Part shown: in pieces, positions 29,976-30,728 of the stretch
Layout of the letters: every line of letters begins with the position of its first letter
Position numbering within the stretch: the first letter of the stretch is position 1
Assembly: GCA_018238545.1 (NCBI GenBank)
Contig: JABCTC010000007.1
Location: 32,087-96,086 of the forward strand
Origin: Candidatus Heimdallarchaeota archaeon
Lineage (GTDB): Archaea; Asgardarchaeota; Heimdallarchaeia; Heimdallarchaeales; Heimdallarchaeaceae
DNA: 64,000 nucleotides
Reading direction: 5' to 3'
Position numbers and translations under genes: made by a program
Notes under the pieces: generated by a model
Databases searched by the model: none
What the model saw: only the letters and a program-made list of their open reading frames with translations
Told to the model about the DNA's origin: nothing

Positions 29976-30061
29976 CGGTAAGTGTAGAACATAATAAGTT
30001 GCTTTAAAATTCTTTTGTAATAATATAATTAGAAAAGTCAGGATTAAGGTTGTAAGTAATC

Positions 30062-30463
30062 TCACATGTTTAAATGAGTGACGAAACCATTGCATATAAT
30101 AGTCCAATTACCATAATCACTGAGAATAATGGGGAAAGACAATGTTCCTGAATAAAACGCAGGTAGCAAACATGGATTCATTTCCATATAAATGGAAATT
30201 GCTACTCTTCTAAAATTTTCATTCATATCAACAGTGTAGCCTTGAATTCTATCGCAACATGTTTGTGAAGACAAAGAGATGTTAACAATACAACAGTAAA
30301 CAGTATCTGCTCACGCAACATGATCATACATAACTACAGAGTCAATGATTACAGAATCAACTTTAGCATGATGAGGAAAGACGTTGGAAATAAGGAACAT
30401 AACGAGTATAATCATAAAAAAAACAGAAACAACAAAAATAGGAATTTTATAGCGTTTTTTCAT
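30062..30463 (-). pseudogene. Small exported/membrane-anchored protein with one in-frame TGA (30311-30313)
   Basis: MKKRYKIPIFVVSVFFMIILVMFLIS...HVA*ADTVYCC... continues in frame into the track ORF 30062-30274. Confidence 0.65.
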
Positions 30464-30519
30464 TGAAATATAATCAAAACTAAAAACTACTTAAAGATTT
30501 AGTGCAAATAAAAGATAGT

Positions 30520-30645
30520 TGGTAGCGCCTGATGGACTTGAACCATCGATCTTCGGGTTTCCCAATTGTTGGTTTATGAGCCCGACGGGTTTTCCACGCT
30601 TAAGGACCATATGGAATTCCTCCATACGATTTACCCCAAGGCGCT
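30520..30645 (-). tRNA. Initiator tRNA-Met(CAU) with two introns (14/15, 32 nt; 37/38, 16 nt) and encoded CCA
   Basis: Acceptor AGCGCCT/AGGCGCT (A1:U72), D stem GGGT/ACCC, anticodon stem TCGGG/CCCGA (three G:C), CT-CAT-A, T arm GATGG-TTCAAGT-CCATC, ACCA end. Confidence 0.93.
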
Positions 30646-30728
30646 CTTTCTACTCCATCTTTACTTCCATGTCTTTTAAACCTTTTTTTCTGGCATTTAT
30701 TATCAAAATAGATTTTCGAACATAGTGC

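Follow-up and report, generated by a model that had tools for sequence, protein, structure and literature searches.

The locus considered here raises the question of whether a tRNA gene interrupted twice, once inside its D-loop and so placed that common gene finders pass over it, can be the gene on which translation initiation depends, and what machinery would then be needed to make the tRNA. The window (the whole 64,000-nt stretch of Heimdall-group Asgard archaeal DNA analyzed) carries on its minus strand, at 30520-30645, an archaeal initiator tRNA-Met gene with two introns, recognized by reading of the sequence and by ARAGORN on the spliced form. In order on that strand, AGCGCCUUGGGGUA is followed by a 32-nt insert, then GCGUGGAAAACCCGUCGGGCUCAUA, a 16-nt insert, and ACCCGAAG...AGGCGCUACCA. 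Taken as a whole, the splicing account included, it is very probable that this is the working and apparently the only initiator tRNA-Met gene of the organism. Its parts, in the direction of the gene, are as follows.

30681-30690, minus strand: purine-rich BRE-like element GAAAAAAAGG, immediately upstream of the TATA box.
30673-30680, minus strand: TATA-like box TTTAAAAG, at 29-36 nt upstream of where the mature tRNA begins.
30632-30645, minus strand: exon 1, tRNA positions 1-14, AGCGCCUUGGGGUA, identical or nearly so in all orthologues.
30600-30631, minus strand: intron 1, of 32 nt, separating A14 from G15 in the D-loop (minimum free energy (MFE) fold, covariation, precise absence in relatives).
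30575-30599, minus strand: exon 2, positions 15-37, with the anticodon CAU (spliced cloverleaf, orthologue alignment).
30559-30574, minus strand: intron 2, 16 nt long, in the canonical 37/38 position (MFE fold; UGGG kept in mini-intron relatives, the remainder variable).
30520-30558, minus strand: exon 3, positions 38-73 plus an encoded CCA at 30520-30522 (spliced cloverleaf, orthologue alignment).
30506-30515, minus strand: T-rich stretch UCUUUUAUUU after the CCA (sequence reading).

Removal of 30600-30631 and 30559-30574 leaves 78 nt, in which ARAGORN recognizes a tRNA-Met(CAU) with complete pairing in all four arms, the normal initiator cloverleaf described in the initial annotation of this DNA. 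The spliced product has A1:U72, three G:C pairs in the anticodon stem (G29-31:C39-41, giving GGG/CCC), G11:C24, and the anticodon CAU. An A1:U72 pair marks archaeal and eukaryotic initiators, elongators having G1:C72. The two other CAU tRNA genes of the genome (C49:45294-45424, which itself carries two introns, and C106:12461-12585) have G1:C72 and C11:G24 and lack the GGG/CCC stem; the CCA end is encoded in all three. These marks point to an initiator, with a predicted role in initiation (Met charging, aIF2 binding).

Upstream, a block reading AAAcAAAGryTTTAAAAGA lies at a constant distance from the tRNA 5′ end at 20 of 20 loci in the genus, although the genes beyond it differ. Within it the TATA core TTAAAAGA is near-invariant and preceded by T or C, and it keeps its spacing to the tRNA 5′ end in every orthologue of the genus. 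By the usual architecture of archaeal promoters, this BRE/TATA block would be the promoter of the initiator gene. T-rich tails are found downstream of the gene in all orthologues, and the stretch after the CCA is likely to be a transcription stop.

Both inserts were compared with the geometry expected of archaeal splicing motifs (a 4-bp exon/intron helix and bulges of 3 nt, each cut behind its second base, as marked below by an arrow). In intron 1, which occupies the coordinates given for it in the initial annotation, the inner helix is a 10-bp hairpin (AUCGUAUGGA/UCCAUAUGGU, loop GGAAU). The central helix, GGGG/CCUU, is formed between exon bases G9-G12 and CCUU of the intron, includes two G-U pairs, and leaves the cut-site triplets UA↓A and AA↓G; this pairing too had been proposed, and is seen both in the sequence and in the MFE fold. 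There is no outer exon helix (h), only the 10-bp h′, so the motif is of the HBh′ type. Since the pairing of G9-G12 with the intron excludes the D-stem, intron 1 would have to be removed before the D-arm can form.

Intron 2 has a central helix between C32-A35 (CUCA) and UGGG, with triplets UA↓A on the 5′ side and AA↓A on the 3′ side. Its outer helix is the 5-bp anticodon stem, while its inner helix is a single base pair; this places the 5′ cut site in a loop of 12 nt with no true bulge, and the motif is a bulge-helix-loop (BHL). The earlier description of this insert is thus retained for its position, its UGGG/CUCA pairing and its triplets, and corrected for the 5′ UA↓A, which it had called a bulge. 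Both introns fall within the relaxed bulge-helix-bulge (BHB) definition of a 4-bp central helix with at least one flanking helix (h or h′).

The precursor has an MFE fold of −43.5 kcal/mol (z = −3.1; none of 200 shuffled sequences was as stable), and both motifs are recovered in it without constraints. Over 10 distinct orthologous sequences, the intron-1 helices have 95.7% of their cells paired, where controls with slid partners reach 38-59%, and compensatory changes on both sides are found at four pairs. Coming from 10 related sequences, this gives moderate covariation support for the intron-1 structure.

Comparison of intron positions among relatives, suggested in the initial annotation as a check, bears directly on the boundaries. 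The genus set comprises 24 genomes, the source genome included. Eight have both introns, three the D-loop intron only, and eight the 37/38 intron only; one (G024) has the 37/38 intron together with a D-loop intron at a different place; and four, all incomplete assemblies, gave no match. The D-loop intron is thus precisely absent in eight genomes and the anticodon intron in three. A search for transcripts, run with the fully spliced sequence against a metagenome collection, returned two genomic contigs rather than RNA, which carry the same promoter, with flanks, and a wholly intron-free allele. All intron-lacking alleles are the exact predicted splice product, apart from a 1-nt sliding ambiguity, which confirms the intron boundaries at the level of DNA.

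Searching 185,579 species genomes for an exon pattern with a D-loop gap gave matches in 10 contigs; Candidatus Heimdallarchaeota archaeon is the title of nine, and “uncultured archaeon” that of the remaining one. Among them is a contig of the congeneric Heimdallarchaeota AB_125 (MEHH01000013), which has the same D-loop intron. The likeness to Thermoproteales drawn in the initial annotation accordingly fits the kind of motif and not the host, which belongs to the Heimdall group of Asgard archaea.

It might be argued that the locus is a decaying pseudogene, and that the functional initiator gene sits in the unassembled 8% of the genome. The assembly is indeed incomplete (a draft of 128 contigs, 91.8% complete and with ~4% contamination), and standard tools do not recognize the gene. 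However, a regular-expression scan and a BLAST search with the spliced sequence found no second initiator-type gene in the 3.63-Mb, 128-contig assembly, so this alternative is unsupported; an intact initiator gene elsewhere was what the initial annotation had named as the sign of a pseudogene here. The exons have no defect of any kind. In some 20 genomes the promoter and exons are kept, the intron helices covary, and the locus is again the sole initiator-like match; no genus genome has a full-length second copy, additional matches being only ~30-nt repeats of the 3′ end. A pseudogene is, on this evidence, very improbable.

The failure of standard tools had been foreseen for this gene, and has a simple relation to its introns. 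Neither ARAGORN in its default mode nor the Rfam tRNA model at its gathering score finds any tRNA in the window, and allowing introns in the anticodon loop does not lead ARAGORN to the unspliced gene. With a relaxed Rfam search it scores 26.1 bits, below the cut-off of 29, and is given a wrong 5′ end. An intron-free allele scores 63.5 bits, an allele with only the 37/38 intron 52.1 bits, and one with only the D-loop intron 39.4 bits, again with a wrong 5′ end; the 5′ end of this last allele is misplaced by ARAGORN as well, and ARAGORN gave no match for the initiator gene of G024. Over the whole genome, ARAGORN with anticodon introns allowed lists 43 candidates, among which Ile, Lys, Tyr, several Pro, Gln and Ala species and the initiator are missing; the Rfam tRNA model likewise gives 43 matches. 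Neither ARAGORN nor Rfam at gathering score picks up the initiator of this genome, nor that of roughly half the genus (the much-used AB_125 among them), and checks of tRNA complement or genome completeness in these eukaryote-related archaea will wrongly call it missing.

If the introns are to be removed, a suitable endonuclease is needed, and the initial annotation had reasoned that this lineage has one of broad specificity. The genome encodes two full-length EndA paralogues, an alpha on contig C109 and a beta on contig C102, both with PF01974 and PF02778. The alpha protein (198 aa; best match the Aeropyrum pernix alpha subunit, E = 5e-38) keeps the Tyr/His/Lys triad and aligns unbroken through the Crenarchaea-specific loop of the A. 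pernix EndA (GFYGKPIGVRKPQLGDEF vs. GYYGQPLDVEKPR-GADF), with a Lys on the Lys equivalent to K44 and a Gln at R46; the 3ajv chain has an Ala at the position aligned with the catalytic His. The beta protein (182 aa) is shorter by ~10 residues at the loop and has an Asn in place of the catalytic His, and is therefore taken as the structural beta subunit. In A. pernix, the Crenarchaea-specific loop and K44 enable cutting of BHB introns in the D-loop and of BHL introns, and the A. fulgidus EndA removes a BHL-type substrate only when the crenarchaeal loop is grafted into it (PMC3241643). Asgard EndAs are described as (alpha-beta)2 enzymes with this loop, also called L1, in PMC5829648. The subunit types and the loop with its lysine support the presence of the broad-specificity enzyme, as had been supposed, with a predicted heterotetrameric form and substrate range. 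Intron 1, with two G-U pairs and no outer helix, and intron 2, with almost no inner helix, would both depend on that range.

The gene for EndA beta on contig C102 is divergent from, and 40 nt distant from, a gene of the TRM5/TYW2 tRNA methyltransferase family (PF02475, PF25133), the pair occupying L002:366-1226 on the minus strand and L002:1267-1812 on the plus strand. The beta protein also resembles eukaryotic Sen54 weakly: it scores 22.9 bits with the Sen54 N-terminal family (PF12928; cut-off 24) and matches Sen54 chains in the PDB at E ~0.002-0.003.

For ligation there are two full-length RtcB genes (C65:3630-4958 and C21:352-1680; 491 aa each; 560 and 552 bits). They may be a true duplication, or may reflect contamination of the assembly (~4%) or mixing of strains.

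Motifs, covariation, the junctions in intron-free alleles, and the enzyme genes are all observed, and from them a pathway of cutting and joining can be proposed. Transcription from the gene's own BRE/TATA promoter would give a precursor of ~130 nt. Before the D-arm folds, G9-G12 would pair with CCUU near the 3′ end of intron 1 and, with the 10-bp hairpin, make up the HBh′ motif; in the anticodon arm, C32-A35 and the UGGG of the 16-nt intron would form a bulge-helix-loop stacked on the anticodon stem. An (alpha-beta)2 EndA, its alpha subunit bearing the specificity-broadening loop, would then make its cuts between the second and third bases of every bulge or loop triplet. RtcB would ligate the three exons into a 78-nt tRNA already ending in CCA, and would probably circularize the introns. 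Initiation of translation in this lineage would in this way depend on the splicing of two relaxed motifs, with the endonuclease and ligase central to it.

Alternatively, the 32-nt D-loop insert might stay in the mature tRNA as an expansion, with the 37/38 intron alone being removed. According to a preprint on Asgard tRNA genes (Goswami et al., 2026; 10.64898/2026.10.13.758758), D-arm splicing has not yet been shown in any Asgard cell, and some inserts may not be introns. In G039, from another family of the same order (locus L100, G039:C165), the initiator gene has a 32-nt 37/38 intron and an unrelated 33-nt D-loop insert near 15/16; a scan of that D-loop insert found no canonical motif of a 4-bp helix with bulges. 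The insert studied here, however, splits A14 from G15 and occupies G10-G12, so that with it in place neither the universal D-arm nor the tertiary core is possible; it has an exact bulge-helix geometry, maintained by compensatory change; sister genomes lack it precisely at the predicted cut sites; and the genome encodes the type of endonuclease for which cutting of D-loop introns was shown in vitro in A. pernix (PMC3241643). Retention in the mature tRNA is scarcely credible against these points, and removal of both introns is the reading followed below.

The distribution of alleles also bears on the history of the introns. Ten distinct D-loop introns are clearly homologous, and each of the genus's two exon lineages contains such introns. 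Loci that are close by upstream identity differ in intron state (L004/L006, 94%; L010/L012, 89%; L013/L020, 95%). From this flank identity and intron homology, the simplest history would be an ancestral two-intron gene in the genus, with the D-loop intron precisely lost several times. Initiator genes without any interruption are found in two other families of the order.

The initiator gene is also not alone in being interrupted at unusual positions. A genome-wide motif scan with in-silico splicing, which gives a partial census, found at least six further tRNA genes with non-canonical introns of the same hairpin layout: T-loop introns in Ala-TGC, Pro-TGG, Phe-GAA, and Gln-TTG, a D-arm intron in Lys-CTT, and an intron at 25/26 in the CAU tRNA on contig C49. 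The T-loop introns of tRNA-Pro(TGG) and tRNA-Phe(GAA) (C49:28173-28204 and C49:176-208) have in common the core TTCAGATGCG(C/T)TCTG and a position at ~59/60, which suggests one intron family in two tRNAs.

These observations allow a different view of how the D-loop intron arose, namely as a copy of a mobile class of ~31-32-nt hairpin mini-introns, moving between and within tRNA genes, with the four pairing bases setting the landing site. All seven non-canonical introns identified in this genome are built to one plan: 1 nt, a stem of ~6-11 bp, a loop of 3-5 nt, four pairing bases, and 2 nt, for a total of 30-33 nt. The allele of G024 (L013) is the most suggestive. Its 32-nt intron stands after GCGUGGAA instead of before GCGUGG, 8 nt further 3′, and it shares with intron 1 of the window an identical 17-nt core, TATGGAGGAATTCCATA, the changes being limited to the four pairing bases and the stem base. 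The pairing bases of G024, CGAC, fit the upstream exon sequence GUGG at three of four positions, where those of the window intron are CCUU against GGGG. Among 30 genomes of the family, the exact 17-mer is confined to the initiator genes of three, G000, G025, and G024; with up to two mismatches, matches outside the initiator gene are no more than background. The nearest relatives of G024 (~95% flank identity) have no D-loop intron.

The G024 intron looks like a relocation or re-insertion of the same mini-intron, to judge from these sequences; it could also belong to an allele imported by recombination from an unsampled strain, and the wider idea of a mobile class is weakened to that extent. The 14/15 intron also looks vertically inherited in the genus, with repeated loss, and the preprint cited above did not identify any general way in which introns arrive. 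A whole-genome BLAST search with the two introns turned up no paralogue of either, so the narrower idea of recent copying from another of its tRNA genes was dropped. A mobile class is a tentative reading, somewhat less likely than not, beside vertical descent with repeated loss. If it were true, G024 would directly capture a protein-spliced intron as it changes place inside a gene by retargeting its short “guide”, and would bear on how archaeal tRNA introns arrive.

The 3′ flank of the gene shows variation of another sort. Directly 3′ of the tRNA, at 30040-30519 on the minus strand of the window, is a ~477-nt insert absent from the relative L006. It contains a broken small ORF, in pieces at 30463-30311 and 30226-30062, whose intact homologues in relatives are 131-141 aa long, with a hydrophobic segment at the N terminus and the motif G[ND]WT[IV]xCN at the C terminus. 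Variable cassettes are found at the initiator 3′ end in the window and in L004, L007, L013, L018, L019, L020, and L030; in several relatives the last ~29 nt of the tRNA are repeated exactly at the end of each cassette, and G024 has at least three such repeats in series. The first cassette in G024 (L013, G024:C10, ~67-453 nt downstream of the initiator) encodes a different protein of 128 aa, MLSKREGLMLYWCEGDKY..., and is bounded by the repeat of the tRNA 3′ end. The pattern suggests that cassettes were inserted one after another, site-specifically, into the tRNA gene's 3′ end.

Interrupted Asgard tRNA genes are in themselves not new. The Goswami et al. (2026) preprint reports them together with D-arm introns overlooked by tRNAscan-SE, inserts enriched at splicing motifs, repeated gains and losses, and widespread two-subunit EndA; some of the same features are covered in PMC5829648 (2018) and PMC11291895 (Valentin-Alvarado et al., 2024), and AB_125 was among the genomes with tRNAs predicted in the former. 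The published genes resemble the present one in having several short protein-spliced introns per gene, with non-canonical positions in the D-arm and T-arm, in D-arm introns missed by the tools, in an (alpha-beta)2 EndA with the L1 loop, and in gain and loss among close relatives. The published work centers on Atabeyarchaeia, Jordiarchaeia, and Freyrarchaeaceae, with Heimdallarchaeia comparatively intron-poor there. We found no paper describing this particular gene, and no description of it, its four allelic states, or the relocated copy in the available parts of those three sources. Interrupted Asgard tRNA genes, missed D-arm introns, and this type of EndA are thus already published, and this gene is one more case of them.

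The multi-intron tRNA genes of Thermoproteales and other Crenarchaeota (PMC4090602) are alike in having relaxed HBh′ and BHL motifs at non-canonical positions. They are also alike in needing a loop-bearing heterotetrameric EndA, as for the D-loop intron of the A. pernix pre-tRNA-Thr (PMC3241643), an enzyme known here from its genes, and in having intron families that apparently transpose (Fujishima et al., 2010, as cited in PMC4090602). Unlike the crenarchaeal hosts, this one belongs to another phylum and is a sediment Asgard archaeon with a 3.6-Mb genome of 34% G+C, not a hyperthermophile; and its non-canonical introns, unlike theirs, are stereotyped 30-33-nt hairpins. The euryarchaeal 37/38 intron (strict hBHBh′, with an alpha4 or alpha′2 EndA) is like intron 2 in position, in its 4-bp helix of anticodon-loop bases with the intron, and in the cut after the second bulge base, but intron 2 has an inner helix of one base pair and its 5′ site in a loop. 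Set beside these systems, the present case does not overturn current understanding; within one genus it brings together all four intron states and a relocated copy, a small, naturally occurring set of alleles in which the loss, gain, and movement of protein-spliced introns can be studied.
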